From positions 2,848,001 through 2,912,000 of the forward strand of contig OZ242214.1 of NCBI GenBank assembly GCA_965206595.1: 64,000 nt of DNA, written 5' to 3'. This document shows, piece by piece, positions 41,990 to 62,700 of the stretch (its first letter is position 1; every line of letters starts with the position of its first letter). The DNA is from Candidatus Latescibacterota bacterium (GTDB lineage: Bacteria > Latescibacterota > UBA2968 > UBA8231). The position numbers and the translations under genes are program-made. Below the pieces are notes generated by a model. That model worked only from the letters and a program-made list of their open reading frames with translations. It searched no databases and was not told the origin of the DNA.

Positions 41990-42120
41990 TGGCGACCGGG
42001 CAGGGTTCGCCTATTCAATGAGGCCGGGGCAACGAAGCCCCGGAATAACGCACAATTGTGCTGGGGAAACGGCAACTTCCATCGCTTCAACGAGGTTCCG
42101 AGCAAAGGTGGGGTTGCGCA

Positions 42121-42249: not shown

Positions 42250-43452
42250 ATGACGATTGATATAAAGATCTTGAAAGAAGCGCTCGGCGGAACAGCTGCA
42301 GCACTTCGGTGTGTGACCGACTATCAGCCGGCAGGAGGCCCCGGAGACAAGGTATTTCCGCCGACTTACGAGGGCGGCAAATATGCCACCGAGGAGCGCG
42401 TCGACCCCGGGACCGGCGAGATACGGCAGTGCGTTCTCCTGGATTCGGTGCAGTCGCAAGCCAACCGCATGGAGCTGGCGCTGCTGGAGGCACACCGCAC
42501 CGGAACGGTACAGCTTCCTCTGCTGGTAACGCGCTTCAATCAAGAGGAACTACTCAAGAAGTTCTCGGTGACCAGCTTGGAGGCACCGCATCGCGTCGCG
42601 GATGCGCTGTTCCGCGACAGTCTGTTGAATGGAATGATTTTCCGTAAGTCAGAGAAAGGTCGAATACTCGACACTGCGGAAGTGCGCAACGCCACCGGCC
42701 TGTTTGGCCTGTGCCCGACCGCACTGGTATTCGGGCTGTGGGACTCGACCGGGCCGCGTGGCGGCTTGGGGTGCAAGTTTCAGCGCGCGGTGGTGTCGGA
42801 AATCGTGGGGTATGACGCCAGGGATGGAAAGAAAACGTCCAGCCGCATTGACCCGGCGGAGATCACGCTCGGCGCGGGTCCGCTGTACGAGCGTAAATCT
42901 GAAAGCGACGATACCTCACACTGGACCTTGGATGAGAGGGACGGCAACAAAAAGCTCAAAAAGACTGGAAGGCCATCGGAAGCGAATCATGGAAACGTCA
43001 CGCCAACCATTGCAGAAGGCGGATTTACGTTTTCGAGTGCCCGACAAACGACAACCTTGTCTCTGGCCGTTCTTCGCCGTCTCCGCTTTCCCCTCAACGG
43101 TGCCGCGGACTCCAACCACGATACCGATCTTGCGGCACGTACGGCGCTGGCCGCACTGGGGCTCGCCGCCGGTACTCTGGCGCGAGTTGATACGGATCTT
43201 CGTTCTCGTTGCCAGCTTTTTGCTGAACAAGAACCTGTGTGGGAACTGCTCGACCGCCCTGGAGAATCTCCGCAGAAATTCAAACTTGGTCCCGAAGATG
43301 CGCTGAATTTGTTGGCAGCGGCGATTACTGAGGCGAAAAACGCGGGGCTACCGTGGGATAACGAAATTGAGCTGACCCCATCGCCCGACCTTATTGAACT
43401 GGTTCGGCGCAGCCAGAAATTGGCCAGCACATCGGGAGAAGGGGGAGACTGA
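42250..43452 (+). CDS. cas7g: Type I-G Cas7 (Csb1/GSU0053 family)
   Basis: QPAGGPGDKVFPPTY, LLDSVQSQANRME, TSLEAPHRVADA, PTALVFGLWDS, PSEANHGNV, DLRSRC. Confidence 0.93.
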   Translation: MTIDIKILKEALGGTAAALRCVTDYQPAGGPGDKVFPPTYEGGKYATEERVDPGTGEIRQCVLLDSVQSQANRMELALLEAHRTGTVQLPLLVTRFNQEELLKKFSVTSLEAPHRVADALFRDSLLNGMIFRKSEKGRILDTAEVRNATGLFGLCPTALVFGLWDSTGPRGGLGCKFQRAVVSEIVGYDARDGKKTSSRIDPAEITLGAGPLYERKSESDDTSHWTLDERDGNKKLKKTGRPSEANHGNVTPTIAEGGFTFSSARQTTTLSLAVLRRLRFPLNGAADSNHDTDLAARTALAALGLAAGTLARVDTDLRSRCQLFAEQEPVWELLDRPGESPQKFKLGPEDALNLLAAAITEAKNAGLPWDNEIELTPSPDLIELVRRSQKLASTSGEGGD

Positions 43453-45812
43453 TGTTCTCTCTTGGCATCCATTACCTGAATGGATGGTCAATGGCAGCAG
43501 CGGATGGAGCGCGAAAGGAGCGGGCTGAATGGCCACCGCATCCCGACCGGGTGTTCATGGCGTTGGCTTCAGCATGGTTCGAGACCGGCGAAGACCCTGC
43601 CGAAGGCGAGGCCCTGCGCTGGCTTGAAGCCTTGCCGCCCCCTGCGATTGCCGCTTCGGATCACGACAGTCGCGGCGCTGTTGTCAGCTATGTGCCAGTC
43701 AACGACTCCACCCTCAGTCGCAAAATTCCCACCGGCGGAGACCTGAACAAACTGAAGGATGCCGGGCTGGCCCAGCTTCCCGAGCATCGGTCGCGCCAGC
43801 CCCGTGGTTTCCCGGTTGCCATTCCCCACGACCCGACCGTGCATCTGATCTGGCCAGGGGTCGAGTTGGGTGCGCATCGCCACGCCTTAGAAAGACTGGC
43901 CCCAAAGGTCACACACGTGGGGCATTCCGCTTCCTTTGTACAAGTGTGGGTGGAAGCTGATCCGCCGGAGCACACGTGGATTCCGGCGAACAGTGTCGGG
44001 CTTCAACGACTGCGCGTAACAAGCCCCGGGCGCTTGAAGGTGTTGGAAACGCGCATGGACCGCGCCGCGTGGATCGCTTACCAAGATCTTCAAGGCGAAA
44101 TCAAGCAAGCCGAGGCGGACCTCAAGGAGATGAAGCAACCGCCAAGGGTGGCTTGGAAGGCATTCCCGGATGTGGTGCTACTGGCCAGTGAATCCGAGGT
44201 CAAGCAGCATCCAGACTATCCTGACGCAAAGGCCGGTGGTGATGCCGAGGCTGCGACAAACCTGGTCAGCAGCCTGGTTGACGAGACGGGAATCGCCACG
44301 GTGCCGGCATTGATCGCCGCGGTCAGCGAGAGCGGTTACCCCGTACTGGTCAGCGCCCATGCCTGGGAACGTCACGGAGTCAATGCCATTCCGATTTCTT
44401 TGGCGGAATTCCTGAGCGAGCGACTCGGAATCCCGTTTGAAGATGCCATCGTGCAGACCAATGTCGTCAACCATACCGGGGCCGACGGCTTTGGCCGACT
44501 CGCTCGGCAAGCCACATTTGAAGGCACGATTGAGAAGGACCGCGAATACCTGATGGTGGACGATTTCGTCGGCCAGGGCGGCACCTTGGCGAATCTGCGC
44601 GGCTGGATAGAAAAACAGGGCGGCCATGTCGTCGGGGCCGTGGCCCTGACCGGCAAACCCTATTCTGCCAAACTGAACCCCTCACAGGAGCAATTGCATG
44701 AACTCCGAGAAAAGCACGGATCAGACTTTGAGAAATGGTGGAAAGCCCGCTTCGGCCACGCCTTCGATTGCCTTACTCAGTCGGAGGCTCGGTACCTCGC
44801 CCGCTCCCCGGATGTTGACACCATCCGAAATCGACTTGTTGCGGCAAAGCAAGAAGGAAATGGCACAGGTTGCGCGCGAAGTCCTCGCGAGCAAAGACAG
44901 TACATCAGGGAGTTGAAAGCGCGTTTGAAGGACGGTTTTCCTAACGGCCAACCCGTGAGCCTGCGCCCGGTGCCGGGACGCTGGCAGGGATACGATAGGC
45001 CCCCGAAAGACAAGGCCCCCGAAGCTTCAGGCCCGGTCTTCGACCCTCAGCTCATTATCCTCGGCATCAAAGGCAATCGCGTGTCTCTATCGGCGACGCT
45101 CAAGCTCACGACGGCCCTGCGCGGCTTATTGATGAAAGAGTGTCCAGAACAACCGCCGCCGGAATGGTTCAGCGGTCATCGCCCGGACGGAACGCCCACT
45201 GCCGACCCCCATCTGGCATTGACTCCTCTCCCTTTCGTCGGCGCGGAACATGCAGACGGCCGCATAATGGGTTTGGCTCTGATCCTGCCGGCGGGCTTGG
45301 ATCAGCAGGAGGCCGGGCATTGCCTCGAACCGTTCTTACGCGATCCAGCTACCGGATTGCCGCGTGAACATCCTTTGTTCGATAGCCAGTGGTTCGAGTG
45401 CGCCATTGAGCTGGAAACCCGCGAACGTCCTCCAAATAACCTCGAGCCGGATACCTGGACACGGAAATCGTGCCGTTGGGCGAGTGCGACCCCGGTGGTC
45501 CTGAACAGACATTTCGATGGCAAGGACAAGTGGGAGCGGGCCGCCGAGAGCGTGAAGGATATGTGCGGACACATCGGTCTGCCGCGTCCCCGCGAAGTTC
45601 TGCTGCACCCGGTTTCTCTAGTTGAGGGCGTGCCTCATGCGAGAGAATATCCGCAATTGACTCGCAAGAACGGTGGTGGCCGACGGAGCCACAACCACGC
45701 GGTGATCATCTTCGACGAGCCGGTGCGCGGGCCTGTGCTTGTTGGAGCTGGTCGTTTCCGTGGTTATGGGTTGTGCCGCCCGATGGATGAGCGAGGTGAG
45801 AACCGTGACTGA
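43452..45812 (+). CDS. csb2: Type I-G Csb2 (Cas5-Cas6 fusion) with an inserted phosphoribosyltransferase domain
   Basis: N-terminal EWPPHPDRVFMAL, YVPVND, HVGHSASFV. C-terminal HLALTPLPFVG..HADGRIMG, WASATPVVL, GPVLVGAGRFRGYGLCRP. Central VDDFVGQGGT. Confidence 0.9.
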   Translation: MFSLGIHYLNGWSMAAADGARKERAEWPPHPDRVFMALASAWFETGEDPAEGEALRWLEALPPPAIAASDHDSRGAVVSYVPVNDSTLSRKIPTGGDLNKLKDAGLAQLPEHRSRQPRGFPVAIPHDPTVHLIWPGVELGAHRHALERLAPKVTHVGHSASFVQVWVEADPPEHTWIPANSVGLQRLRVTSPGRLKVLETRMDRAAWIAYQDLQGEIKQAEADLKEMKQPPRVAWKAFPDVVLLASESEVKQHPDYPDAKAGGDAEAATNLVSSLVDETGIATVPALIAAVSESGYPVLVSAHAWERHGVNAIPISLAEFLSERLGIPFEDAIVQTNVVNHTGADGFGRLARQATFEGTIEKDREYLMVDDFVGQGGTLANLRGWIEKQGGHVVGAVALTGKPYSAKLNPSQEQLHELREKHGSDFEKWWKARFGHAFDCLTQSEARYLARSPDVDTIRNRLVAAKQEGNGTGCARSPREQRQYIRELKARLKDGFPNGQPVSLRPVPGRWQGYDRPPKDKAPEASGPVFDPQLIILGIKGNRVSLSATLKLTTALRGLLMKECPEQPPPEWFSGHRPDGTPTADPHLALTPLPFVGAEHADGRIMGLALILPAGLDQQEAGHCLEPFLRDPATGLPREHPLFDSQWFECAIELETRERPPNNLEPDTWTRKSCRWASATPVVLNRHFDGKDKWERAAESVKDMCGHIGLPRPREVLLHPVSLVEGVPHAREYPQLTRKNGGGRRSHNHAVIIFDEPVRGPVLVGAGRFRGYGLCRPMDERGENRD

Positions 45813-47553
45813 GTTGAACGATGGTCCGGCGCGGAAGCACCTGTTGCTGACGGTGCTTGGGAAGGATCCCAAACCTGCTCAATACACCCTTGAAGATCGG
45901 TGTGTAGAAGCCCGGCTTGCGCCCATCGCCCTGTTCAACCTGCTGCCCGAGGAAAAGCGTCCTGATCGAGTGCTGGCGCTGTGCACGCCGGAGGCGAAGC
46001 AGGATAGCTGGCCACTGCTTGAACAGGAGCTGGACGATCGGTGCCAAGTCGCGGCCGTTGAGGTACCCGCTGGCGACACCCAGGAGGACGTCAATGCTTT
46101 TTTGGCCACAGTTACCGGTGCCATTCCAGAGAAAGCCGAACTTATGGTGGACGTGACGCACGGGTATCGGCACTTCTCGTTTCTCACGTACATCGCAGTG
46201 CTCTATCTGGCCGCGCTGCGCGGAGCCGCGATACGCGGCGCGTACTACGGCATGCTGAATCGGGATGCGCCCAGTCCGTTCCTCGATCTGCGCCCGCTCC
46301 TAGAGCTGCCTCGCTGGGTTTATGCGTTGGAGGTTTTGCGCGACACGGGCAGTGCGCTGCCGATGGCCAGGATACTCGACGATGGTCCGGACAGTCAGCC
46401 AGCACGAGACAATTCCCGCGACTTGACCCACCTCTCGGGAGCATACCTCTCGGGCTTGCCATTGGAGTTGGGGTGGCAGGCGTGGAACGCCCGTGAGCAC
46501 CGGCGCAAGCCGTTCACGAGGTTGCTTCGGGACGGCCTTCATCTGCCGCTCGCCGAGAAGTTGGTCGAGCGGCTCGGGGAGATCCTCAAGCCCTTTGCCC
46601 TCGCCGCACCGGCTTCAGGCGAGGGATGGAAGAAGCGCGTTGGGCTGTCCAGGGATGAGTTGCAGCGCCAAGCTCGAATCATCGACGATCTGCGGCGTGA
46701 GAACCTCGTGACGGCGCTCCGCCTGATGCGCGAATGGCTCGTGTCGTGGGCGATCTACCGGCAAGCGTCCGCAGACGATTGGCTTGACCGCGATGTGCGG
46801 CACAAGGCGGAAGGGCTTCTTCATGCAATCAATGCCATTGGCAGCGACAGCAGACTCCGCGACGTCTTGACCGAAGAACAGCGCGCGCTGGGCGGCTTCT
46901 GGGGTAACCTTGCCGAAGCCCGGAACGCCTATGCGCATCACGGAATGCGTGGGCAGCTGCTCGTTGGAAACAAGCAACTCGATAAAAACCTCGACTGTAT
47001 ACAGAGGTTTTGGAAAGATGACCTTCGTTCGTGTCCGGAGATGTCCCTCTCGCTCGGCGAGTCACCCGGCGGTGCAGTCCTAGTGAGCCCCATCGGACTG
47101 CGCCCCGGCGTGCTGTTCAGTGCCGTACAGGCATGTCGGGCGAACGAGGACAGTCGAGACCCGGCGTTGTGCCTCGTCATCTGTTCACCCGAGACAGAAG
47201 AACTGATCGCCGAGGCGTTGAAACATGCCGAGTTCGGGGGCGAGTTCGTGCCGCTCGTCCTTGAAGACGCCTTCGGCGGTGGCCCGGATGAGATCCTGGA
47301 ATTGGTGAGCACCTCGCGAAGGCGCTTCATCGGCGCCGACGAAGTGCTGGTGAACGTGACCGGCGGCACGACGCTCATGGGGCTTGCCGCCGAAAGTCTG
47401 GCAAGCGAGGCACGCTTGCTTGCCTGTCCATCGGTGCGCCGTTTCGGTTTGATCGACCGGCGGCCTCCAAGCGAACAGGAGGACGACCCTTACCAGGCAG
47501 GCGAGCCGTTCTGGTTCGATGACGGAGAGGAGGACTATGCCAACCGACATTGA
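45805..47553 (+). CDS. csx1: Csx1/TM1812-family CARF-HEPN ribonuclease with an extra C-terminal CARF-like domain
   Basis: DVTHGYRH (46150), YYGML, HEPN RNAYAH (46921); C-terminal VSPIGLRPGVL...VNVTGGTT; GTG start overlapping the csb2 stop. Confidence 0.82.
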   Translation: MTELNDGPARKHLLLTVLGKDPKPAQYTLEDRCVEARLAPIALFNLLPEEKRPDRVLALCTPEAKQDSWPLLEQELDDRCQVAAVEVPAGDTQEDVNAFLATVTGAIPEKAELMVDVTHGYRHFSFLTYIAVLYLAALRGAAIRGAYYGMLNRDAPSPFLDLRPLLELPRWVYALEVLRDTGSALPMARILDDGPDSQPARDNSRDLTHLSGAYLSGLPLELGWQAWNAREHRRKPFTRLLRDGLHLPLAEKLVERLGEILKPFALAAPASGEGWKKRVGLSRDELQRQARIIDDLRRENLVTALRLMREWLVSWAIYRQASADDWLDRDVRHKAEGLLHAINAIGSDSRLRDVLTEEQRALGGFWGNLAEARNAYAHHGMRGQLLVGNKQLDKNLDCIQRFWKDDLRSCPEMSLSLGESPGGAVLVSPIGLRPGVLFSAVQACRANEDSRDPALCLVICSPETEELIAEALKHAEFGGEFVPLVLEDAFGGGPDEILELVSTSRRRFIGADEVLVNVTGGTTLMGLAAESLASEARLLACPSVRRFGLIDRRPPSEQEDDPYQAGEPFWFDDGEEDYANRH

Positions 47554-48748
47554 AGCGACTTACGGGGTGGTCACGCCGCTATTTTGCGCTGGGGCCGATC
47601 CAGAGCACGCCGAGCTTCGCCTGCCCAGCTTCAAGGGTGCACTGCGATTCTGGTGGCGGGCGTTGGCATGGTCGCGCTACGGCCCTGACCTTGAAACCAT
47701 ACGGAAACAAGAGGACGCGCTATTTGGAAGCGCGGATGGTGGCCAGTCCCGTGTGTCAATGCACTTGGCTCTATCTTCGGTTCAATCGATAGTTTGCAAA
47801 GACGAAGTTCTCACCGTTTCCCAAACAGACACGCGTGTCGTTGAGGAAGGAGCTCGCTACCTCGGTTACGGCGTGATGGAGGCATTTGGGAGCCAACGGA
47901 AAAACACGAAAAAAGGACAGCTCACGCGGGCATGTCTTCGCGCACCGTTCGATTTCACCGTTCTAATGCGAGGTCGTGAACTGAACGGGATGGAGTTGAC
48001 GTCACTCAAGGATGCCCTGATCGCACTTGGAACTCTCGGCGGAATGGGTGCGAAGAGCCGCAAGGGTTACGGTTCCCTGGCCATTCGGTCTCTTTGTATA
48101 AACAGAGAGGAGCAGAGGAGTGGGCCGCAATCCATGAGCAAACTGCACGGCGCGATCAAAGCGTTTAGAAGCAACGGCGATACAGGGGCGCTGCCCGAAT
48201 TCACGGCGCTGTCGGCGAAGGCTCGCCACATCCTGCTATCGAGCCACAAGAAGGAGCCCCTGGAGTTGTTGGACCTTATCGGTCGCGAACTCGTCAGGTA
48301 CCGAAGCTGGGGGCACAGAGGAAAGATCTTTGGCGGAGAAGACTCGGAGAAAAATTTTGAAGATGACCGCGATTTGATGAAAAGCAATCGGCCCAATGCA
48401 CATCCCCAGCGCATCGCCTTCGGGCTTCCCCACAACTTCGGGCTTCCCCACAACTATGGTAAGCGACCAAACCAGCAAGTTGGCCCAGGTGACAAGGAAC
48501 TGGACCGACGCTCCAGCCCGTTGTTCATCCATATCCACGAGTGCGGCGATACACCGGTCGCTGTCCTGTCGTTCCTCCCCGCGCGATTTCTGCCAAAAGG
48601 CAAATCGGATATCTCCGTTGGGGGGAGCAAAGTCCCTCAGCGTCCAGAGGACGAATTGTACCGCCCAATTCACGACTTCCTCGATCGCCTACTCGATCCC
48701 AAAAAACGCGAGGAACCGTTTACGATTGCCAAGGAGGTGCGGCCGTGA
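47537..48748 (+). CDS. cmr1: Type III-B RAMP Cmr1
   Basis: VVTPLFCAGA, ELRLPSFKGALRFWWRA, LFGS, GGMGAKSRKGYGS, FGLP, RRSSPLFIHI. Confidence 0.92.
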   Translation: MPTDIEATYGVVTPLFCAGADPEHAELRLPSFKGALRFWWRALAWSRYGPDLETIRKQEDALFGSADGGQSRVSMHLALSSVQSIVCKDEVLTVSQTDTRVVEEGARYLGYGVMEAFGSQRKNTKKGQLTRACLRAPFDFTVLMRGRELNGMELTSLKDALIALGTLGGMGAKSRKGYGSLAIRSLCINREEQRSGPQSMSKLHGAIKAFRSNGDTGALPEFTALSAKARHILLSSHKKEPLELLDLIGRELVRYRSWGHRGKIFGGEDSEKNFEDDRDLMKSNRPNAHPQRIAFGLPHNFGLPHNYGKRPNQQVGPGDKELDRRSSPLFIHIHECGDTPVAVLSFLPARFLPKGKSDISVGGSKVPQRPEDELYRPIHDFLDRLLDPKKREEPFTIAKEVRP

Positions 48749-50682
48749 CAACGCGCCTCGACATTTCCATCGGCCCGGTGCAAGGGTTTGTCGCCCAGTC
48801 GCGCCGAACCCGCGACCTGTGGGGCAGCTCCTACCTGCTGGCGTTCCTGTCCGCCCACGCGATGCGCGGCGCAAACGAGGCTGGCGGCAAAATCATTCAG
48901 CCCGTTGTCGACAACGATCGGCTCTATCGGTGGGTCTCTGGCCAGCGAGAGGGAGAGCCGCCCCGAATCGGTTCGGTGCCGAACCACTTCGTGGTGGAAG
49001 TGGGGGGAGATGCCCGGAGTGTCGCCCATGCTGGAGAACGGTCGCTAAACAACGCTTGGGTGCGAGTTTGCAGGGCGGTGTGGGAGCAATTCGTTGAGCA
49101 CGGCTGCCCGGCCGGTGAGGGAACGGAGGACATCTGGAATCGGCAGACCGACGGATTCTGGGAGGTTATGTGGACTGCCGGGCCGTCGAATGCCGGAAGC
49201 GGGTTGCTCGCCCGCCGCAAGCACTGGCGCACCCATCGCCCGCCCGACGAACCCGGCGATAAATGCACGGTCATGCCCGAATTGCAGGAGCTTTCGGGGC
49301 ACCTCCGCGCCGAGGGCCGCGACCGCTTCTGGGAATGGGTACGCAGTCGCTTGGGGCCACTGGATCTGCGTGACAAAGAACGGCTGTGCGCCATCGCGCT
49401 CGTGAAACGGTTGTTCCCAAAGGTCGCTCCCGCGGCCCTGGGCTGGGAGGTGGATACTTCTCACTGGCCGTCGACCGTGTACGTCGGGGCTGTGCCGTGG
49501 ATTCGGCGTGTAAAGTCCGTTGCGCCGGAAGAGGGCCGCAAATACGCCGACGCTGTTCGCGACAATGTGCCCCAAAATGTCCTGGCCGAGCGTCATCCTC
49601 CGTTCGCGGGACTCAACGACTCCGCGGCAGGCGACTTCTCGAAGCTCGACGCTAACTATTTTCTTCGCGATTGGGTGCAGGACAAGCGCCGGTGTCCACT
49701 GGCGGATAGCGCGGCGGATGGGACGCGAGATGAACTGGTTCGACAACTGGAGACTCTGTACGATGCTGAGGATGAGGACGGGCGCCTGGGACCACCTCCC
49801 GCGTTCTACGCGCTGCTGCTCGCCGACGGCGATCGCCTGGGCGAGTTGGTGAGTGTGCTGGACGGACAGCGCGTAGGAGAAGCACTGGCGGCTTTCACCG
49901 GCGAAGTCCGCAGGGTCGTGGAAGACCACTACGGGGTGACCGTCTATGCCGGCGGCGACGATGTGCTCGCCATGCTCCCCGTGCTGAACGCACTGACTTG
50001 CGCGGAAGCTCTTTCCGAGCGCTATAGGAACGCCTTTGCGGATACGGACGCCAGGGGCGATGCGACCCTCTCCGCAGCCGTCGTCTTCCCCCATATGCGA
50101 TTGCCGCTCAACTACGCGCTCGGCGAAGCGCATCGGCTGCTCGACACCGTCGCCAAGGACGACAATGGTCGCAACTCCTTGGCGGCGGCTGTACTGAAAC
50201 CCGGCGGGCCATACTGTCAGTGGGTAACTGCCTGGACTCGTCGCAGCGCTAACCGCAACGCCAGTGCAGTGGCCTTGCTTGGTGGTCTGGTGCAGCAACT
50301 CGGTACGAACGCGGCTGAACCCGGTCTTTCGTCGGCGCTCATCTATCGGTTGCGGGACACGCTCACCCGGCTCTGCGGCTGGGAGCAATGGCAGCCCGGG
50401 AATTGGGGCGACCTTCCAAGAGACCTCGACATTAGCGCATTCCTTCGCGCCGAGATTTGCCACAGCCTGGATGTGAGGATGGATGGTGGTGCGAAAGCTC
50501 GCGCCGACGAACTAACCGCTATCGTCTGGAATCTACTCGGGCAAGCCCGGAATCCGAGTCGCGACGAGGCCAACGTCTTCCGGGATGACACCAGCAATAG
50601 TGAAGTCACGCAGGCTGGCATTGACGCGCTTCTTCTTGCCCGATTCCTGACTGACCCTGAGCAACGGGAGGCCGACAGATGA
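48745..50682 (+). CDS. cas10: Cas10/Cmr2 (no HD domain, intact GGDD)
   Basis: SIGPVQGFVAQSRRTRDLWGSSYLL at the N-terminus, YALLLADGDRLG, VYAGGDDVLA (49951-49962). Confidence 0.94.
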   Translation: MTTRLDISIGPVQGFVAQSRRTRDLWGSSYLLAFLSAHAMRGANEAGGKIIQPVVDNDRLYRWVSGQREGEPPRIGSVPNHFVVEVGGDARSVAHAGERSLNNAWVRVCRAVWEQFVEHGCPAGEGTEDIWNRQTDGFWEVMWTAGPSNAGSGLLARRKHWRTHRPPDEPGDKCTVMPELQELSGHLRAEGRDRFWEWVRSRLGPLDLRDKERLCAIALVKRLFPKVAPAALGWEVDTSHWPSTVYVGAVPWIRRVKSVAPEEGRKYADAVRDNVPQNVLAERHPPFAGLNDSAAGDFSKLDANYFLRDWVQDKRRCPLADSAADGTRDELVRQLETLYDAEDEDGRLGPPPAFYALLLADGDRLGELVSVLDGQRVGEALAAFTGEVRRVVEDHYGVTVYAGGDDVLAMLPVLNALTCAEALSERYRNAFADTDARGDATLSAAVVFPHMRLPLNYALGEAHRLLDTVAKDDNGRNSLAAAVLKPGGPYCQWVTAWTRRSANRNASAVALLGGLVQQLGTNAAEPGLSSALIYRLRDTLTRLCGWEQWQPGNWGDLPRDLDISAFLRAEICHSLDVRMDGGAKARADELTAIVWNLLGQARNPSRDEANVFRDDTSNSEVTQAGIDALLLARFLTDPEQREADR

Positions 50683-51788
50683 TTGGGGTCCAACTCCTAC
50701 CGGTGGACACCTGGTTCTTCCGCGACGGCACTCCGTTCACGGCAGATAGCGCGCCACAGGATAACGTCGGAAGCCTGTTTCCGCCGCATCCGCCGACTGT
50801 AGCCGGCGCGCTCCGTGGGGCGTTGGCGTTAGGCAGAGGTTGGAACGGCCGTGGATGCTGGCCAGAGGGACTCAACACAGTACTCGGCGATGGACCGGAA
50901 GATTTCGGCGCGCTCTCAATGGAGGGTCCCTTCCTCCTCCGTGAGAACGAACCACTCTTCCCCGCGCCTCGGCACCTTCTCGGCTCGGTCGAAAGAGACC
51001 GGTGGATTCCTCGCGTCCTACTCCGCCCGGGTGCCTGCGTGACATGCGACCTGGGCAATGCCGTACGACTTCCGGAAGCGGGCAGCACCACGGCCAAAAT
51101 CGAGGAATGCAAGACTGGCGATGGCTGGTGGCTCACACTCGCAGGCATAGGGAGAGTGCTGCGCGGCGAGCTCCCGGGCGAGGTGGTATCGAGCCGATGT
51201 CTCTGGAGCGAGGAGCCGCGAGTCGGGCTGAAACGCGACCTGAGTAAACGCGCCGCGGAAGAAGGCATGCTCTACAGCACCCGGCATGTACGTCTTAATC
51301 GCGGTGTCTCGATTGGGCTGCGCCTCGGTGGTGTCCCGCCGGATTGGACGTTGCCGACAGACCAGCTCATGCGGCTGGGTGGCGAGAATCGCCTCGCAGT
51401 CTGTCAGGAATGGAACGCCGAGCCAACCCTCCACATGCCGTTGACAGAAATCGAGGATAGTGGACAGGTCACGGTGATTGCCCTGACCCCACTCGACCTC
51501 GACGAAGCCGTGTATCGCGGCCGGCAGCCCCTCGATGCACCTGGCAACATCCGGGTCGTCTCCGCCTGCCTAACCCGCCCGCAACGGATCGGAGGATGGG
51601 ACTCCCTGACCCGCCGGCCCCTGCCACTTCGGCCCGTGCTGCCGCCCGGCAGCGTGCTCTTCTGTGAAATAGACGATCCGGGCCTCCTAGTCGATACAAT
51701 GCATGTGGGCAACAACAACCAACTACCCCGGCTGGGGGCGCGGCAAGCATGGGGCTTTGGTCGCGTGGCGCTCGGCGTCTGGCCTTAA
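50679..51788 (+). CDS. cmr3: Cmr3 (Cas5-group RAMP)
   Basis: PVDTWFFRDGTPF, FPPHPPTVAGALR, LGGENR, GGWD, PPGSV, GFG. Confidence 0.92.
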   Translation: MIGVQLLPVDTWFFRDGTPFTADSAPQDNVGSLFPPHPPTVAGALRGALALGRGWNGRGCWPEGLNTVLGDGPEDFGALSMEGPFLLRENEPLFPAPRHLLGSVERDRWIPRVLLRPGACVTCDLGNAVRLPEAGSTTAKIEECKTGDGWWLTLAGIGRVLRGELPGEVVSSRCLWSEEPRVGLKRDLSKRAAEEGMLYSTRHVRLNRGVSIGLRLGGVPPDWTLPTDQLMRLGGENRLAVCQEWNAEPTLHMPLTEIEDSGQVTVIALTPLDLDEAVYRGRQPLDAPGNIRVVSACLTRPQRIGGWDSLTRRPLPLRPVLPPGSVLFCEIDDPGLLVDTMHVGNNNQLPRLGARQAWGFGRVALGVWP

Positions 51789-51805
51789 CCGATAGGAGGT
51801 AACGT

Positions 51806-52630
51806 ATGAACGCGGCAATGCTCGGCTTGCTGGCCGAAACCCCGATCCATCCCGGCGCAGGACGCAGCATGGGGGTTGTGGATCTACCGGTTGCCCGCGA
51901 GGCGGCTACGGAATACCCGGTGCTCGTGGGTTCGAGCCTGAAAGGCGCGCTGAGGGACAAGATGGAAACGGCGAAGGGAGAGGACGACACGAAAGTCCGT
52001 TTCGGAAAACCGGATCAAGCGGGCGATCTGCTGGTCTCCGATGGACGACTGCTGTTACTGCCCGTGCGCAGCCTGATGACCTCGTACCGCTGGGTGACCT
52101 GCCCCCACATCATTGAGCGCTATTTCCGTGACCTCGCCCGGGCCGGTCTGACTCAACGGCTGCCGGTTCCCGACGTGGAGAAAGACTCCGTCCTGGCGAC
52201 GGGCAATGGCAATTTGTTCCTCGAGGAGCGACAATTCGCCATCAACGGTACGCCGCAAGAAGAACTGATCAACGCCATCGCTCCACTCCTGTTGCACGAG
52301 CAGACCAGGAAACGCCTGCGCTCTCAGAAAATCGCCGTGCTGTGCGACGATGATTTCTCCTGGTTCGTACGCTATGGCCTCCCGGTCCAGGCACGCAACG
52401 TCTTGGAGGACGGCACGAAGAAGAGCAAAAACTTGTGGTACGAGGAGACGCTGCCACCGGATACAGTCATGTACGCCCTCGTCATGGGACGTAGCGACGA
52501 TGCTCTGAGGGCGCTTAACTCGCTCTTCCCCGACAGCGATCCCTACCTGCAAGCCGGCGGTAACGAGACGGTGGGCCATGGATGGTTCGCCGTCAGGGTA
52601 CCTTCCGAGGACACCGAAGGTGCGACGTGA
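51806..52630 (+). CDS. cmr4: Cmr4 (Cas7-group target RNase)
   Basis: ETPIHPGAG, VVDLPVARE (catalytic Asp present), GSSLKGALR, LWYEETLP, QAGGNETVGHG; AGGAGG RBS. Confidence 0.94.
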   Translation: MNAAMLGLLAETPIHPGAGRSMGVVDLPVAREAATEYPVLVGSSLKGALRDKMETAKGEDDTKVRFGKPDQAGDLLVSDGRLLLLPVRSLMTSYRWVTCPHIIERYFRDLARAGLTQRLPVPDVEKDSVLATGNGNLFLEERQFAINGTPQEELINAIAPLLLHEQTRKRLRSQKIAVLCDDDFSWFVRYGLPVQARNVLEDGTKKSKNLWYEETLPPDTVMYALVMGRSDDALRALNSLFPDSDPYLQAGGNETVGHGWFAVRVPSEDTEGAT

Positions 52631-53034
52631 AGACCATTGAGCAAAGACGTGCGGCAAACGCCCTTTTGCGTGTCACCGAGTTGAGCAACCGCTCGAATGA
52701 TTTCAAGGCACGGTACCGTGCCTACGTGGACCGCCTGGGGCCGGCAATCGTCATGAACGGCCTGGGCCAGGCACTGGCAACGGAACGTGCAGCCTCCGAC
52801 TCGCGCAACAGTGATCGCGAAAAGGCGCATCACGAGCTGTACATCGGCCTGCAACGCTGGCTGTGCCGGAAGGACGAGGGCGTGTATCCTTCAAGTCAAG
52901 ACCTTTTGCAGGCCATCATGGAGCACGACCAATTGCTTTACCTGCACGCCCAGGCAGAAGCGCTCGCATGGCTTGAGTGGCACAAGAAATGTTGCCGGGC
53001 TCAGTTCCCGAAGGACGAGGAGGGTGAGGAATGA
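52627..53034 (+). CDS. cmr5: Cmr5 small subunit (Cas11)
   Basis: KTIEQRRA, IVMNGLGQALA, EALAWLEW; GTGA and ATGA overlaps. Confidence 0.9.
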   Translation: MKTIEQRRAANALLRVTELSNRSNDFKARYRAYVDRLGPAIVMNGLGQALATERAASDSRNSDREKAHHELYIGLQRWLCRKDEGVYPSSQDLLQAIMEHDQLLYLHAQAEALAWLEWHKKCCRAQFPKDEEGEE

Positions 53035-54062
53035 CCCTTCCCCTGTACAAAGCGGCTACCCAACCGAGCCGATCTTCCGGGGATCACGCGGGGTTGTGGT
53101 TCGACAAATTCTGCAATCACTGGCATGTCACCTGCGACTCTTGGACGATGTCGGGCGAGCAGAAGCTCATGTGGATCAAAAGCCTCGCGAATGACAGGGT
53201 CGGCGCCACCGATCAGATCGACGAATTTGCGTCTCGGCTTCGGCGGCTAGTCAAAAGGCGTGATGGTCGGTTCGAAGTTTTTACAACGGAATCCCGCTTC
53301 GTCACCGGGCTTGGCCGTAGTCATCCCGTCGAGAACGGCTTTGCTTGGCATCCGACGCTGGGGACGCCTTTCCTGCCGGGAAGCTCAGTCAAGGGGTTGA
53401 TTCGTTCATGGGCGAAGATGGACGCCGAACCCCATCCAAGTTGCAAAACCTTGGATCGACTGCTTGGGCAGTCTGAGGAAACGGGCGGCGTGTGTTTCCT
53501 CGATGCCGTTCCCGATGCTCCTGTACAACTTGAACCCGATGTCATGACACCGCACTATGCCGGCTGGGACGAGAAGAATCCACCTGGCGATTGGCGCTCC
53601 CCCACACCCATCCCCTTCCTCACCACGGCCGCCGGAACGTCGTTTCTGTTCGGTTTCATCCCCTGCCGCGGCGCCACAAAGAAGGAGGATCTTGATACCA
53701 TAGCGGTCTGGCTGCGTTCCGCTCTCGAGTGGGCGGGCGCCGGGGCCAAGACGGCGGTCGGGTATGGTCGCTTTCGTCCGGGCAAGGTCACCACCACTCC
53801 AAGTCTCCAGCAGGCCCCTCAAAGCCCCCACACAAGAAGGGGCGTCGAACCAAAACCCGGGGACCGCGTCCAAGCCGAACTCCTGGAGGAGAAAACTAGG
53901 AGAGGGGGCTGGAAGGCCAAGCATCCGGAAAGCGGGCTGCAAGGCCCGATACAAGACACCGATAACGTTCCTGCCGACGCCAAGCCGGGGCACCAGGTCG
54001 AACTAACGGTCGCCTACGTAAGGGCGAATGAAATCGCATTCAAATGGGGCACACCGTGTTGA
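53031..54062 (+). CDS. cmr6: Cmr6 with a C-terminal extension
   Basis: RFVTGLG, GTPFLPGSSVKG, FLDA, DVMTPHY, PTPIPFL, GAGAKTAVGYG. Confidence 0.92.
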   Translation: MTLPLYKAATQPSRSSGDHAGLWFDKFCNHWHVTCDSWTMSGEQKLMWIKSLANDRVGATDQIDEFASRLRRLVKRRDGRFEVFTTESRFVTGLGRSHPVENGFAWHPTLGTPFLPGSSVKGLIRSWAKMDAEPHPSCKTLDRLLGQSEETGGVCFLDAVPDAPVQLEPDVMTPHYAGWDEKNPPGDWRSPTPIPFLTTAAGTSFLFGFIPCRGATKKEDLDTIAVWLRSALEWAGAGAKTAVGYGRFRPGKVTTTPSLQQAPQSPHTRRGVEPKPGDRVQAELLEEKTRRGGWKAKHPESGLQGPIQDTDNVPADAKPGHQVELTVAYVRANEIAFKWGTPC

Positions 54063-56992
54063 GCAGTACAGATTTTGCCGAGTTCTTCAACAGCCTGTGG
54101 GGCCATCCGCCCTTCGCTTGGCAGCAGGCTTTGGCGACTAGAGTACTCGAGCGAGCAGAGACTCCCTGGCCCGAGGCCATCGCCTTGCCCACGGCGTCCG
54201 GCAAAACCGCGTGCCTGGATATCGCGGTTTTCGCGTTGGCGGCCCAGGCTTCCCGGCTGGACCGGAGGCAGACCATCACCGCGCCACGCCGCATCTTCTT
54301 CGTGGTGGACCGGCGCGTAATCGTTGATGAGGCGTATGAACGCGCCCGCCGATTGGCGAAGAAACTGGAGAATGCCGAGGAAGGCATTCTGAAGACAGTC
54401 GCGGACAATCTCCGGCAGATTGCAAGCGGTGAGATGACCTGCTCCAATGATGTCCGACCGCTATCCGTTCACGTATTGCGCGGCGGCATGTATCGGTCGG
54501 AGGCTTGGATGAATAGCCCGCTTCAACCCATGGTGGTGGCCTCGACTGTCGATCAAATCGGCTCTCGCCTGTTGTTTCGCGGCTATGGACGTGGTCATAG
54601 CACATGGCCGATAGCTGCGGGATTGGTCGCTAACGACAGCCTGATCCTGCTCGACGAGGCGCATTGTGCCCAGCCGTTCCTGCAAACCCTGCAAGCGGTG
54701 CGGCGCTATCAAAAATGGGGGCATACGCCGCTTGGGCGTCCTTTTTACCCGGTGGTGATGTCGGCCACACCGCCTACCGGGATAGAGGATGTATTCGAGG
54801 ATCGTTCCGGCGAAGGCCGCGATCCTTGCCATCCGCTAGGCCGCCGACAATTGGCGCACAAACCGGCGATCTTGAAGAAAGCGGAAAGGGCCAAGGGGAA
54901 GCAGGCCACTAGCGCGATGGCCAAGGCTTTGGTGGAGGCTGCGTTGGAGCTGGTCAACGACGAGCGCCCCGCTATCGTAGTGTTCGTCAACCGCGTTGCC
55001 ACGGCGCGGGAAGCCCATCGGCTGCTATCCGATAGGGAAGACCTCGACGCAGTTCTACTCACTGGCCGCATGCGTCCGGTTGATAAGGACACAATCGTTC
55101 GGCAACGCTTGAACCTCTTGCGATCCGATCTAGCCAATGAGCGTTCTTTGGCAAAACCGGTGATCGTTGTGGCTACCCAAACTCTGGAAGTTGGGGCGGA
55201 TCTCGACTTTGACGGCTTGGCGACCGAGTGCGCGAGTCTCGACGCCCTGCGACAGCGCTTCGGCCGACTGAATCGCATGGGACGACCGATCGCCGCGGGG
55301 GCAGTTATTCTTGTACGCGGCGACCAATCCGATGCCGGGAAAAAGCACGACGATCCTGTTTACGGAGAGGCCCTGACCGATACCTGGACATGGCTCAACG
55401 GATGCAAGAACGAAAACGGTGAGGTGGATTTCGGTATTGCCCATATCGAGGATCAGCTGCCGAAGGGAGACTCCCTTTCCATGCTGAACGCCCCCTCCGT
55501 CGATGCCCCGGTGATGCTTCCGGCCCATGTCGATTGCTGGGCGCAAACAGCGCCGGAACCACAACCTTCACCCGATGTGTCAGTGTTTCTGCACGGACCT
55601 CGCGAAAACCTGGCGGATATACAGGTCTGCTGGCGTGGCGATCTGGACCTGTCGAACGAAGATGCAGGAAAACAGGCAATTGAGTCATTGTCCTTGTGTC
55701 CGCCGAGCAGCAGCGAAACGCTCCCGGTGCCGATCAGCGTTTTCCGGCGTTGGCTGGCTGGAGAAACCTTTGAAGATGACAGTGGGGACGTGGAGGGCAG
55801 CGGGAGTGATACGGACGAAGAAAGCGCTTCCTATAGAGGTCGCGACGTAATTCGGTGGAGGGGAGCAGGAACAGGACCTGAGGACATTACCTCGGATCCC
55901 ACAAAAATTCGGCCCGGGGATGTTATCGCGATCCCGATCAACCATCCCCTTCCACGTCATCAACTTGGCGACCTGCCGCAGGACGCGGAGTTGGACGTGG
56001 GCGATCGCGCCTATTTGCTTGCCCGGGCCAAGCCCATCCTCCGCATTCACCCGAAGTTGGTGGATGCCTGGCCGGATTCCGTTGATGCCACGGAAAACGC
56101 TCGGAAGTTACTGAACGATTTGGAACGCAAGTACGAGGACGATGAGCTTGACGATGCCTTGGACGATCTGCTGACAGAGCTTTCCAATTCGCCCGAACGG
56201 ACTTGGCTGGCGGAAACCGCAAACGTACTCTGCAAGGACCACACCTATCGCATTGTCGGGGGGAACAGCATCACCCTCGTCGGACACCGCATGATACCGA
56301 AACTTGCTCACGCGGCGGACAGCTTCAGCGACGAGGACGATGCGGCAGCCTCCGGCACATCACACCGCAACGGCCACCCAGTCAAACTTCGGGCCCATCT
56401 CCCCGGAGTCGAAAGGTTTGCCCGTTGCCATGCCTCCGGTTGCGGATTGCCTGTAGACTTGGTCGAGGCCATCGCCAAGGCCGGCTTGCTGCACGACCTG
56501 GGCAAGGCCGATCCTCGATTTCAGTCCTTGTTGCAAGGCGGCGCTCGCTGGTTGGGTGGGGAACTTCTCGCCAAGTCTGCTCGAATGCCGATAAATCGGG
56601 CAGCCTATGAGAAGGCTCGGACCGCTTCGGGCTATCCCAAAGGCGGGCGGCACGAACTGCTTTCAGTGTGCTTGGCAGAAAGCGCGTCGGTGCTTTTGCC
56701 GGAAAGGGACGATCTGCGCGACTTGGTTCTGCATTTGATTGCCAGCCATCACGGCCACTGTCGGCCGTTCGCACCGGTGGTGTTTGACGAGCAGAGCGTG
56801 GATGTAGATTTCGAGTTACGCGGCCAAGGGACGCACTGGTCCGGTCCTACCGGCCTTGAAGGTCTCGATTCCGGGGTCGCGGACCGCTACTGGCGGCTGG
56901 TGCAGCGCTATGGATGGTGGGGCCTGGCTTGGCTGGAAGCCCTATTGCGACTCGCCGATTGGCGGCAGAGCGATCTGGAGGAGACACAATGA
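54044..56992 (+). CDS. cas3: Type I-G Cas3 (SF2 helicase with C-terminal HD nuclease)
   Basis: LPTASGKT, VVDRR, STVDQIGSRLLFRGYG, LLDEAH, MSAT, QRFGRLNR; C-terminal LHDLGKAD and SHHG. The start may be 54056 or 54059. Confidence 0.94.
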   Translation: MGHTVLSSTDFAEFFNSLWGHPPFAWQQALATRVLERAETPWPEAIALPTASGKTACLDIAVFALAAQASRLDRRQTITAPRRIFFVVDRRVIVDEAYERARRLAKKLENAEEGILKTVADNLRQIASGEMTCSNDVRPLSVHVLRGGMYRSEAWMNSPLQPMVVASTVDQIGSRLLFRGYGRGHSTWPIAAGLVANDSLILLDEAHCAQPFLQTLQAVRRYQKWGHTPLGRPFYPVVMSATPPTGIEDVFEDRSGEGRDPCHPLGRRQLAHKPAILKKAERAKGKQATSAMAKALVEAALELVNDERPAIVVFVNRVATAREAHRLLSDREDLDAVLLTGRMRPVDKDTIVRQRLNLLRSDLANERSLAKPVIVVATQTLEVGADLDFDGLATECASLDALRQRFGRLNRMGRPIAAGAVILVRGDQSDAGKKHDDPVYGEALTDTWTWLNGCKNENGEVDFGIAHIEDQLPKGDSLSMLNAPSVDAPVMLPAHVDCWAQTAPEPQPSPDVSVFLHGPRENLADIQVCWRGDLDLSNEDAGKQAIESLSLCPPSSSETLPVPISVFRRWLAGETFEDDSGDVEGSGSDTDEESASYRGRDVIRWRGAGTGPEDITSDPTKIRPGDVIAIPINHPLPRHQLGDLPQDAELDVGDRAYLLARAKPILRIHPKLVDAWPDSVDATENARKLLNDLERKYEDDELDDALDDLLTELSNSPERTWLAETANVLCKDHTYRIVGGNSITLVGHRMIPKLAHAADSFSDEDDAAASGTSHRNGHPVKLRAHLPGVERFARCHASGCGLPVDLVEAIAKAGLLHDLGKADPRFQSLLQGGARWLGGELLAKSARMPINRAAYEKARTASGYPKGGRHELLSVCLAESASVLLPERDDLRDLVLHLIASHHGHCRPFAPVVFDEQSVDVDFELRGQGTHWSGPTGLEGLDSGVADRYWRLVQRYGWWGLAWLEALLRLADWRQSDLEETQ

Positions 56993-57921
56993 CGGAAAAT
57001 GAACCAGCTCCAGGTCTTCTGCTGAACGGGCTCGACGGCAGCAATCCGCTCGGATTTCTCGCGGCCGTTGGCGTGCTGCGTGTTGCTACAAAGGCTGACT
57101 CTTACTCGGACTGGCGTGTACGTTGGGAAATGCGAGGGGGGCACTGGTCCCCTGTATTGCTTGGGGACAAAGTGCTTGCAGCGGATGGTTTGATCGAACT
57201 ACTTGTGCCCGCTCTAACGGAAATGAAGGGCGATCATGCGTTTGGGTTTGCCGATGATCTGACGATCAACTGCGAGGAGTTCCGGCAAGTGGCTCAAGCC
57301 GCCTGCAACGCAGCGGATCTCAAAGATCGGCACTACGCCGATTTCATTGCCGCTTTCGGCTGTGATAGCGTCCCCATCTCCGCCAAGAATTCACGGATCC
57401 AGGACACAGCGCTGCGAACCATGAGCGGAGCAGGCCATCAGCACTTCATCGGCTCCATGCGAGAACTGGTTGAAAAAACCAACCCTGGTCATTTGCGCGC
57501 TTCCCTGTTCGAGCAGTGGCAGTACTCAGATTCCAAACCGAGTCTTCGCTGGGATCCTGTTGACGACCGCAGGTACGCCCTGCGTTGGAAGGAACCTTCG
57601 GGCGATCCCGTGCGCACAATGCGCGGCGCCAATCGTCTCGCGGTTGAAGCACTGCCCCTTTTCCCTACCGCACCTGGGGAAAGGAACCTGCATACGACCG
57701 GCTTTACACAGCGGCGAGGCGAAGGCGTGCTGTTTACATGGCCAATCTGGGAAGTGCCCTTGAACATTGACACCGTGCGTTCGCTGCTCAGCTTGGCCGA
57801 GTTACAAGAGCCTCGACCAGACCGGAAGAGTCTTTTTGCGAAAGGCGTTGTTGAGATTTTCAGGAGCCAGCGAATTACAAGGGACAAGTATCGCAATTTC
57901 ACACCTGCCGTACCTGCATGA
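56989..57921 (+). CDS. cas8g: Type I-G short large-subunit protein (Cas8g2/Csb3-like)
   Basis: GLDGSNPLGFLAAVG, SGAGHQHF, LRWDP.DDRRYAL, GANRLAVEALPLFP, FTWPIW; ATGA overlap with cas3. Confidence 0.75.
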   Translation: MTENEPAPGLLLNGLDGSNPLGFLAAVGVLRVATKADSYSDWRVRWEMRGGHWSPVLLGDKVLAADGLIELLVPALTEMKGDHAFGFADDLTINCEEFRQVAQAACNAADLKDRHYADFIAAFGCDSVPISAKNSRIQDTALRTMSGAGHQHFIGSMRELVEKTNPGHLRASLFEQWQYSDSKPSLRWDPVDDRRYALRWKEPSGDPVRTMRGANRLAVEALPLFPTAPGERNLHTTGFTQRRGEGVLFTWPIWEVPLNIDTVRSLLSLAELQEPRPDRKSLFAKGVVEIFRSQRITRDKYRNFTPAVPA

Positions 57922-59455: not shown

Positions 59456-59478
59456 AGAGCCAGAACAAGCTGACATCC

Positions 59479-61026: not shown

Positions 61027-61049
61027 GGATCCAGAACAAGGTGATGGCC

Positions 61050-62403: not shown

Positions 62404-62700
<297 letters not shown>

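Follow-up and report, generated by a model that had tools for sequence, protein, structure and literature searches.

In the type I-G CRISPR (clustered regularly interspaced short palindromic repeats) system of Thioalkalivibrio sulfidiphilus, the subunit Csb2 consists of two halves that fold independently around a linker at R260 (PMC9638904). The Cas6 half cleaves the repeats of the precursor CRISPR RNA (pre-crRNA), with H503 as the catalytic histidine, and remains on the 3′ hairpin of the crRNA, and the N-terminal half is required for assembly of the complex. Here we analysed a 64,000-nucleotide stretch of the genome of a Candidatus Latescibacterota bacterium (assembly GCA_965206595.1, contig OZ242214.1, positions 2,848,001 to 2,912,000 of the forward strand). 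This whole stretch is called the window and is numbered 1–64000; feature coordinates follow that numbering, and sequence past its end was read from the whole genome. Codes for loci (L001–L079), genomes (G000 and so on) and proteins (P0121 and so on) are labels of this analysis. The window carries a type I-G locus that resembles the canonical system in its TIGR02165-type Csb2 with two halves, in the partners Csb1/Cas7g, Cas3g, Cas8g, Cas4-Cas1 and Cas2, and in a 36-nt repeat ending in ATTGAAGC. It differs from that system in having a large subunit of the short, 335-residue ‘Cas3-extension’ form and, above all, in a Csb2 (43452..45812, plus strand, 786 aa) with 255 extra residues in the inter-domain linker. 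These residues match a phosphoribosyltransferase (PRTase) family of plasmids and phages, and we suggest that csb2 took up from a mobile element an accessory nucleotide-binding module, which would be tethered to the CRISPR effector complex Cascade.

The csb2 gene is a single uninterrupted open reading frame (ORF) whose product scored 287.8 bits against TIGR02165 (cut-off 45; E 2e-85) and 66.3 bits against PF09609 (cut-off 21). The PADLOC Cas56g profile PDLC01777 (4.3e-123) matched this protein in two stretches, the second of which covers aa 477–781 and profile positions 154–430 of 431; a foreign segment therefore splits the profile. Both halves are present and can be aligned with insert-less Csb2 on either side of the insert. 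The borders became visible when 72 Csb2 proteins encoded by related loci were aligned: in the insert-less protein of locus L056, ...SEIKQAKTDRKATK runs straight into YIKDLQARLKDRF..., and the window protein has aa 229–483 between these points. Insert-less orthologues, which are 453–565 aa long, have ...KATK joined directly to YIKDL.... The original prediction, made from the letters alone, had placed a PRTase domain in frame between two intact Csb2 halves, and both the family profiles and the split PADLOC match agree with it. Its figure of about 300 inserted residues was too high, as the insert measures 255 residues (nt 44136–44900) and some 45 residues of the apparent gap are native linker. 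The landmarks it had named were correctly located, namely GRLKVLE at aa 193–199, M227-KQPPRV at the start of the insert region, V369-D370-D371 from nt 44556 and RPVPGRWQGY at aa 505–514.

The protein thus delimited comprises, all on the plus strand, an N-terminal Cas5-like half (aa 1–205, 43452..44066; PF09609 match at aa 17–203), which aligns with insert-less Csb2, a first native linker segment (aa 206–228, 44067..44135), the inserted KfrC/MuF-type PRTase domain (aa 229–483, 44136..44900), a second native linker segment (aa 484–505, 44901..44966) and a C-terminal Cas6-like half (aa 506–786, 44967..45812). The two linker segments also occur in insert-less orthologues, and the PRTase domain is missing in L056 and 17 other Csb2 proteins. 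The Cas6-like half corresponds to the second stretch of the PADLOC match and carries the glycine-rich C-terminal motif GAGRFRGYG. H749 and G765–G773, the latter in this motif, were invariant. The PDB sequence set contained no Csb2 entry. Because the halves of T. sulfidiphilus Csb2 fold independently around their linker, an insertion at this place is structurally plausible by analogy, and we infer from the sequence that the flanks of the insert form a helical hairpin.

The insert was a full-length match to phrog_22413 (E 7e-63, profile positions 12–238 of 242) and was 40% identical over about 245 residues to aa 9–250 of RP4 KfrC (E 1e-50). A search of 1.84 billion protein representatives returned 2157 relatives at E ≤ 0.001, which were of three kinds: stand-alone proteins of about 240–250 aa, proteins of 350–880 aa with the domain mostly at the C terminus, and giants of 1000–4700 aa. 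When 15 of the longer relatives were scanned with Pfam, nine had MuF or LPD partner domains (MuF in seven, LPD1/LPD37/LPD39 in two) and one had DUF7146 with Toprim_3; in PHROGs, head-morphogenesis or DNA-pilot families were found in relatives P0139, P0144, P0148 and P0225. A further relative, P0123 (817 aa), consists of two tandem mobile-element PRTase domains with no further recognised domain. In IMG/VR, 131 of 142 matched stretches encode a relative (38–53% identity in the 80 listed), and 169 plasmid records matched the insert, the rows listed being annotated as kfrC, ‘stable inheritance protein’, phosphoribosyltransferase or nothing. Identity to the insert stayed below 60% in every plasmid and phage record and in all 80 virus-contig loci listed, and the window’s own domain sits in a chromosomal cas gene. 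A viral or plasmid origin of the whole fused gene was rejected, as the phage, plasmid and IMG/VR collections held no close match.

The insert alone matched adenine phosphoribosyltransferases (APRTs) in the PDB at E 0.02 only, and a profile built from 33 family members gave 37 matches at E ≤ 1, of which 35 belong to the phosphoribosyltransferase (PRT) superfamily (APRT, PRPP synthetase, HPRT, PurR, ComF and OPRT), with APRT the best at 6.2e-7. On its sequence we assign the insert to the ‘PRTases from invasive elements’ group delineated by Iyer et al. 2017 (PMC5512222), and to the same family as the PRT domain that Mitura et al. 2021 assign to KfrC of RA3 and RK2 (PMC8124265). Relatives in mobile-element conflict proteins had been anticipated, and phrog_22413, the plasmid records and the MuF fusions provide them; the sequence comparisons add what the original prediction had missed, that the insert belongs specifically to the PRTase family of KfrC, MuF payloads and polyvalent proteins, and that it has been lost again several times.

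What is known of this family comes from plasmids and phages. The N-terminal PRT domain of KfrC from IncP-1alpha (RK2/RP4) and IncU (RA3) plasmids shares the DD-x-x-x-x-GGT loop and the family signature with the insert. KfrC, however, is encoded by plasmids as a protein in its own right, in which dimerisation and the binding of KorB and VirD4 depend on a C-terminal domain that Csb2 lacks, and it acts with KfrA at the segrosome, whereas Csb2 is part of a CRISPR complex (PMC8124265). The phage MuF-fusion and polyvalent PRTases described by Iyer et al. (PMC5512222) belong to the insert’s family through phrog_22413 and the MuF/LPD1/LPD37/LPD39 fusions, and they share with it the catalytic-type DD motif and an arginine after the second strand. 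They are delivered or expressed by the invading element, whereas the insert is embedded in a host defence subunit; nucleotide production or sensing at DNA entry has been proposed for them (PMC5512222).

One explanation suggested by this background is that Cascade displays a mobile-element establishment domain to bind the partners of that domain, such as KfrA/KorB-like segrosome proteins or the host targets of injected PRTases. Cascade might in this way be drawn to incoming elements, or it might compete with the invader’s own PRTase. Outside Csb2, the family is found almost only in plasmids and phages, in proteins that accompany the DNA of the element on entry or assemble on it; kfrABC lies in the RP4 leading region and is zygotically induced (PMC7314908), and KfrC binds KfrA and KorB (PMC8124265). 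However, the same source places the KorB, VirD4 and self contacts of KfrC(RA3) in its C-terminal 112 residues, which are missing in the Csb2 insert, and its split PRT part lost strong KfrA binding (PMC8124265). A pure binder, moreover, would not need the catalytic-type residues that are intact in 151–153 of 153 inserts. We consider a decoy or adaptor of this kind less likely, and give it a small probability.

A PRPP-type loop and two further candidate loops were delineated in the insert. The phosphoribosyl pyrophosphate (PRPP) loop spans aa 366–380 (44547..44591, plus strand; YLMVDDFVGQGGTLA, including VDDFVGQGGT); its hydrophobic strand, two acidic residues and G-x-T turn could be aligned residue for residue, as YLMVDDFVGQGGT, with the APRT loop in PDB 6fsp/5zgo. 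A candidate pyrophosphate (PPi) loop, so named from its position in the PRT fold, lies at aa 303–314 (44358..44393, plus strand; HAWERHGVNAIP) and contains the family-invariant E306 and N311, which all 117 family domains and all 153 Csb2 inserts retain. A candidate flexible loop at aa 341–353 (44472..44510, plus strand; HTGADGFGRLARQ) contains the conserved R349, found in 99% of family domains and in all 153 inserts, and we infer that this is the arginine after the second strand in the published group (PMC5512222). At the positions conserved in at least 90% of the 117 family domains, the window insert has 32 of 32 residues, among them K260, E306, N311, Q335, R349, F356, D370, D371, G376, G377, T378, T442 and E445. 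Among 153 unique Csb2 inserts, D370 was present in 151 and D371 in 152, and K260, E306, N311, Q335, R349, F356, T378 and E445 were present in 153; the intact DD/PRPP loop of the window insert had been noticed in the original prediction. The number of invariant positions beyond the PRPP loop makes a catalytic insert appear more probable than a non-catalytic one.

The main rival to a catalytic module is a ligand-gated regulator, in which the PRT fold would sense PRPP, nucleoside monophosphates or deoxynucleoside monophosphates, as in PurR, PyrR and possibly ComFC, with no chemical turnover. We treat this as a possible but clearly minority reading, and equally tentative are the steps that might be regulated: RNA-hairpin binding by Csb2, crRNA processing, handling of the displaced strand or hand-over to the Cas3g helicase. 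In its favour, ComFC (PDB 7p0h; PMC9005727) has a PRT core with three PRPP-binding loops, as the insert appears to have, and handles single-stranded DNA (ssDNA) and associates with a helicase; it binds PRPP, AMP and ssDNA through or beside its PRT domain, with no catalysis known, and the same text describes PurR and PyrR as using the PRT fold to control nucleic-acid binding. The insert also adjoins the RNA-hairpin-binding Cas6 half, and the family profile matched PurR and, weakly (E 0.07), H. pylori ComF. However, the DD pair together with K260, Q335, F356, T442 and E445 is absolutely or nearly absolutely kept across phage, plasmid and Csb2 members, which fits a defined second substrate better than binding alone. 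Cells that overproduce KfrC(RA3) grow more slowly and have condensed nucleoids, and this toxicity needs the DDT motif, being lost on a change to AAA (PMC8124265). ComFC is also only a remote relative: it has an N-terminal 4-Cys zinc finger, which the insert lacks, and is without the family’s N- and C-terminal helical extensions; P0121, a segment of aa 201–509 that contains the insert, has two cysteines, none in a CxxC pair. Another PRTase-type domain in phage defence is that of ShosT in ShosTA, which is linked to sensing of invading ssDNA, and for whose toxicity PRPP binding is indispensable (PMC12961424). Its architecture and partners differ from those of Csb2: a PPase-fold domain precedes the PRTase in ShosT, and the antitoxin, ShosA, is DprA-like; there were no ShosT or ShosA models among the PADLOC matches of Csb2 at E ≤ 0.01, and no DprA-like gene was seen in the annotated locus.

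We then compared selection on the insert with that on the rest of the gene. Ratios of non-synonymous to synonymous substitution rates (dN/dS) were computed among 50 intact fused genes, and medians were taken over the 464 of 1225 pairs with 0.1 < dS < 1.5. The median was 0.177 for the insert (aa 227–470), 0.166 for the N-terminal half and 0.150 for the C-terminal half, and it was higher in the native linker pieces, at 0.22 (aa 206–228) and 0.32 (aa 471–505). The insert is under the same constraint as the Cas halves, and its value of 0.177 led us to reject a relic without selection. An assembly artefact or a singleton was rejected as well, since the same junctions occur in 57 other loci and contigs of public sequencing runs bridge them. 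These contigs, from three coded studies, span both insert junctions: the 5′ junction is covered by X5 record 25 (43794–44739), and the 3′ junction by X1 and X3 records (44809–45321), which may come from the source sample, and by X4 record 19 (44869–44998). Among the conditions named in advance as refuting the prediction, a singleton, a lack of purifying selection and unsupported junctions are thus contradicted by these data. A search of sequencing runs listed no RNA dataset containing the sequence. We also observed that, among the metagenome contigs of four runs, the summed depth of the stretch 44716–44873 (FEKWW...LTQSEARYL...IRNRL), the most conserved part of the domain, exceeded that of the adjoining sequence 10–60 times; it was carried by 9–20 different contigs per run, and many variants of the domain coexist in those samples.

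In a protein search, 1333 of the 8000 candidates that were scored proved to be relatives. Members of the 120 top-ranking clusters were 677–814 aa long and 67–95% identical; their source names, where given, are ‘Csb2’ or ‘Cas5/Cas6’, and only one of these clusters carries a precomputed PF00156 label. A locus survey limited to a single genome for each species gave 105 stretches coding for a relative, from which 78 distinct loci were retained. An insert was found at the same position in 57 of the 78, from several phyla; 49 of these genes are intact ORFs (767–803 aa), five are interrupted and three are cut by contig ends. Together with the window gene, 50 of 58 fused genes are intact, at identities down to 54%. 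Record titles place the loci in Latescibacterota, Binatia, Nitrospirota, Acidobacteriota, Alpha- and Gammaproteobacteria, Entotheonella and Dehalococcoidia, and names from the protein search add Gemmatimonadota and ‘Deltaproteobacteria’, all of them bin labels that may contain errors. Among 60 relatives of the window genome, the full gene was found in one, from the same family and another genus, at 78% identity, and the two genomes of the same genus had distant, insert-less Csb2 only. This patchy presence indicates that the locus moves horizontally.

The history of the insert was read from two trees. In a tree of 117 family domains, the Csb2 inserts formed one clade (SH-aLRT 98), which also contains two short proteins whose context is not known; its neighbours are solo PRTases and one polyvalent protein. 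A tree built from the Cas halves alone, with 71 rows and the frameshifted L053 left out, required at least six changes of insert state, with insert-less or remnant forms nested within insert-bearing clades. L054, which is without the PRTase core, is sister to L020 with Cas halves identical at 205 of 205 and 274 of 281 residues; L055, with 47 insert residues remaining, is sister to L014, L058 is sister to L038, and L056 is sister to L049. L054, L055, L056 and L058 are all still in frame, and at least three separate in-frame deletions have removed the PRTase core. The simplest history would be that the domain was captured once from a mobile element, travelled with the locus as this spread, and was lost in frame repeatedly. 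Short fragments in two related genomes, G020:C1:432115-432366 and G012:C2:2628611-2628853, match only aa 404–492, the end of the PRTase, contain 2–3 stop codons and are likely remnants. A divergent I-G operon in a Vicinamibacterales record (L074:1035-11215) has a Cas3g-Cas8g fusion of 1131 aa and an extra ORF matching the C-terminal half of Csb2 only. It also has a stand-alone PRTase gene, 71–73% identical to the Csb2 inserts; because it retains part of the Csb2 linker, this gene looks derived from the fusion, and as a single case of that kind it was not used as evidence for action in trans.

These distributions bear on the possibility that the domain has no function and is a passenger, or no more than a spacer, that the linker tolerates and that horizontal transfer has carried along with the locus. 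The varying linker length, as seen in insert-less Csb2, the several in-frame deletions and the patchiness of the locus would all fit such a passenger. It is nevertheless hard to reconcile with an insert dN/dS equal to that of the Cas halves and below that of the true linker pieces, with the complete set of family signature positions, and with the large majority of fused genes being intact over so wide a range of identities; we judge a passenger unlikely, below the regulator and the decoy.

We therefore propose, with moderate confidence, that the insert is an accessory PRPP- or nucleotide-binding module, probably catalytic, of mobile-element origin and tethered to Cascade. The linker that joins the Cas5-like and Cas6-like halves of this type I-G Csb2 has taken up an entire PRTase-type domain, of 255 residues, from the mobile-element family that supplies the N-terminal domains of KfrC, the C-terminal payloads of MuF head proteins and modules of polyvalent proteins. 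The insert would fold independently and loop out of Csb2 at the crRNA 3′-hairpin end of Cascade, where it could bind PRPP or a nucleoside 5′-phosphate through its PRPP loop and would most likely be catalytically active. The DDT-dependent toxicity of KfrC(RA3) and the toxicity of ShosT, which needs PRPP binding, are precedents for such activity. Its activity may be an accessory, costly and dispensable one that is added to Cas3-dependent interference, acting locally, on nucleotides or on nucleic acid bound to Cascade, at the end of Cascade distal to the protospacer-adjacent motif (PAM). The accessory and costly character is suggested by the in-frame core deletions that leave an intact Csb2 (L054, L055, L058), the cost perhaps being high enough for loss when the domain is not needed. 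A stronger version, in which the insert is an active PRPP-dependent enzyme that Cascade places at the target and that phosphoribosylates, or chemically marks or consumes in another way, a nucleotide, a base or bound nucleic acid upon invader recognition, we put forward only tentatively. That the insert depletes PRPP or synthesizes a signal is speculation.

Several observations weigh against this proposal. We know of no enzymatic product of any member of the KfrC/MuF family. Conservation of motifs does not prove turnover, because the same motifs are present in ComFC, for which binding of PRPP and AMP is known but no catalysis. Pfam PF00156 scored the insert at 20.7 bits (E 2.8e-4), under its gathering cut-off of 26.3, although the same model was matched at E ≤ 0.01 by 20 of 33 family members and relative P0123 reaches 29.8 bits; an hhalign comparison with one HPRT-like protein of the same genome was weak (E 0.0012, 19% probability). 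What we say of the fold, of the helical hairpin and of access to the active site is predicted from sequence profiles and published assignments. Repeated loss shows that Csb2 can be retained without the domain, and might also mean that the domain is useful only conditionally. Finally, a comparison of gene content found no gene specific to PRTase-bearing loci besides a patchy AAA-ATPase_like neighbour.

That neighbour is an AAA-ATPase_like/PDDEXK_9 cluster present in 20 of 58 PRTase-bearing loci as against 0 of 21 other loci. Several of its members are noise from overlapping reading frames and about 14 seem genuine, and the loci are relatives of one another; AAA-ATPase_like genes lie upstream of csb1 in L001, L003, L006, L008–L010, L015, L016, L019, L021, L057 and L065. 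In view of the frame noise and the relatedness of the loci, the cluster was not accepted as a partner of the PRTase.

A literature search found no description of a Csb2–PRTase fusion, although supplementary alignments or figures (Iyer et al.; Shangguan et al.) might show one; the text of Iyer et al., in the part available, contains no ‘Cas5’ and mentions no Cas fusion (PMC5512222). The Csb2–PRTase fusion is thus a widespread and apparently undescribed variant. It places a nucleotide-chemistry domain inside a Cascade subunit, where selection has kept it in dozens of species from several phyla, and the domain’s family is one that plasmids and phages use when their DNA enters a cell and becomes established. 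Type I Cascade is not known to act otherwise than by recruiting Cas3 or, in a few rare variants, by means of an HNH nuclease fused to it. If the insert is an active enzyme at the target, it would constitute a second, non-nuclease effector chemistry for type I CRISPR, taken from the establishment toolkit of invaders, and it would reveal the activity of the KfrC and MuF/polyvalent PRTases. The tractable CRISPR context offers a direct route to the function of those PRTases and allows one to ask whether hosts have turned an invader’s tool into a defence accessory. Even if the domain proves dispensable and inert, the architecture is common and unannotated, its database names, where shown, being plain ‘Csb2’ or ‘Cas5/Cas6’.

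In the window, csb2 and cas3g are separated by a nested type III-B module that is complete (45739–54062), and this arrangement raises the further possibility that the PRTase is functionally coupled to the module’s Csx1 and cyclic-oligoadenylate (cOA) pathway. The module consists of a csx1-like gene for a CARF-HEPN-CARF protein, which is the first gene of the block (45739..47553, plus strand, start codon uncertain; PADLOC PDLC01840 3.4e-137), followed by cmr1, cas10/cmr2, cmr3, cmr4, cmr5 and cmr6 (47519..54062, plus strand), which were identified by profile matches, the GGDD of Cas10 being read in the translation. Csx1 and cmr1–6 thus follow csb2 directly, and because the module has no cas6 or array of its own within the window, it may use crRNAs that Csb2 processes from the shared array. 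However, a csx1–cmr block between csb2 and cas3g occurs in only 3 of the 57 other PRTase-bearing loci (L010, L017 and L034). L013 and L015 have only a weak Cas10-like match at the position of the block, and all remaining loci are plain I-G operons (csb1, csb2, cas3g and cas8g) in one of two gene orders. Because the block is so rare, the insert is not tied to the cOA pathway: it evolved and persists without cmr. The coupling envisaged in the original prediction is rejected by this distribution, and we regard it as highly improbable.

A role as a replacement effector, also considered at first, fared no better. The Cas3g HD residues (H785, H817-D818, H870 and H902-H903) were kept in 43–44 of 44 insert-bearing loci and in 19 of 19 other loci with full-length Cas3g. 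Because these residues are kept with and without the PRTase, the domain is an addition, and a substitute for the Cas3 nuclease was rejected. Arrays of the ATTGAAGC type, with up to 52 repeats, were found within the fetched flank in 23 of 57 loci; arrays beside insert-bearing loci, including the window’s own with 98 repeats, argue that the Cas6 half of insert-bearing Csb2 probably still processes crRNA.

The remaining genes of the window’s locus all lie on the plus strand. Upstream of csb2 lies csb1, which encodes Cas7g (42250..43452; PF09617 1e-52, TIGR02570 2e-21), and downstream of the type III-B module lie cas3g, with a helicase and a C-terminal HD nuclease (54044..56992; TIGR02621 1.5e-220, HD motif residues conserved), and a short cas8g of the ‘Cas3-extension’ family (56914..57921; NF049934 4.2e-85, PADLOC Cas8g 3.6e-95). 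Three AAA-ATPase_like (PF09820) genes or fragments with PDDEXK_9 ends follow in tandem (58269..62365; Pfam match). The adaptation module comprises cas2 (62410..62700, L079:5410-5700; PF09827 2.4e-17) and a cas4-cas1 fusion (62714..64000, continuing to 64489 past the window; PF01867 3.8e-85, PF01930 3.6e-17). The CRISPR array, with 98 copies of the 36-nt repeat, begins 671 nt after the window end, at the equivalent of position 64672 (G000:C1:2912671-2919854; L079:7672 onward). With csb1, csb2, cas3g, cas8g, cas2, cas4-cas1 and this array, the type I-G locus is by gene content a complete adaptive system that is apparently working.

The array’s start-to-start spacing is irregular (56–113 nt) at the cas-proximal end and about 71–78 nt further in. 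The genome has two further arrays, each with a different repeat from this one, at 2114573 (16 repeats) and 6771834 (48 repeats). The locus is a low-GC island, with a GC content of 0.56–0.64 against 0.67–0.72 upstream. At its left border, an orphan CRISPR repeat of the array’s repeat family lies at 42014..42049 on the minus strand, directly upstream of an AT-rich stretch and csb1; its motif, CGGCCTCATTGAA, was found once in the window and is similar to the repeats of related loci. Further upstream, an ORF of 1695 aa (23938–29025, minus strand) contains three arrays of 123–126-nt tandem repeats (TRF rows 25685, 26273 and 27979).

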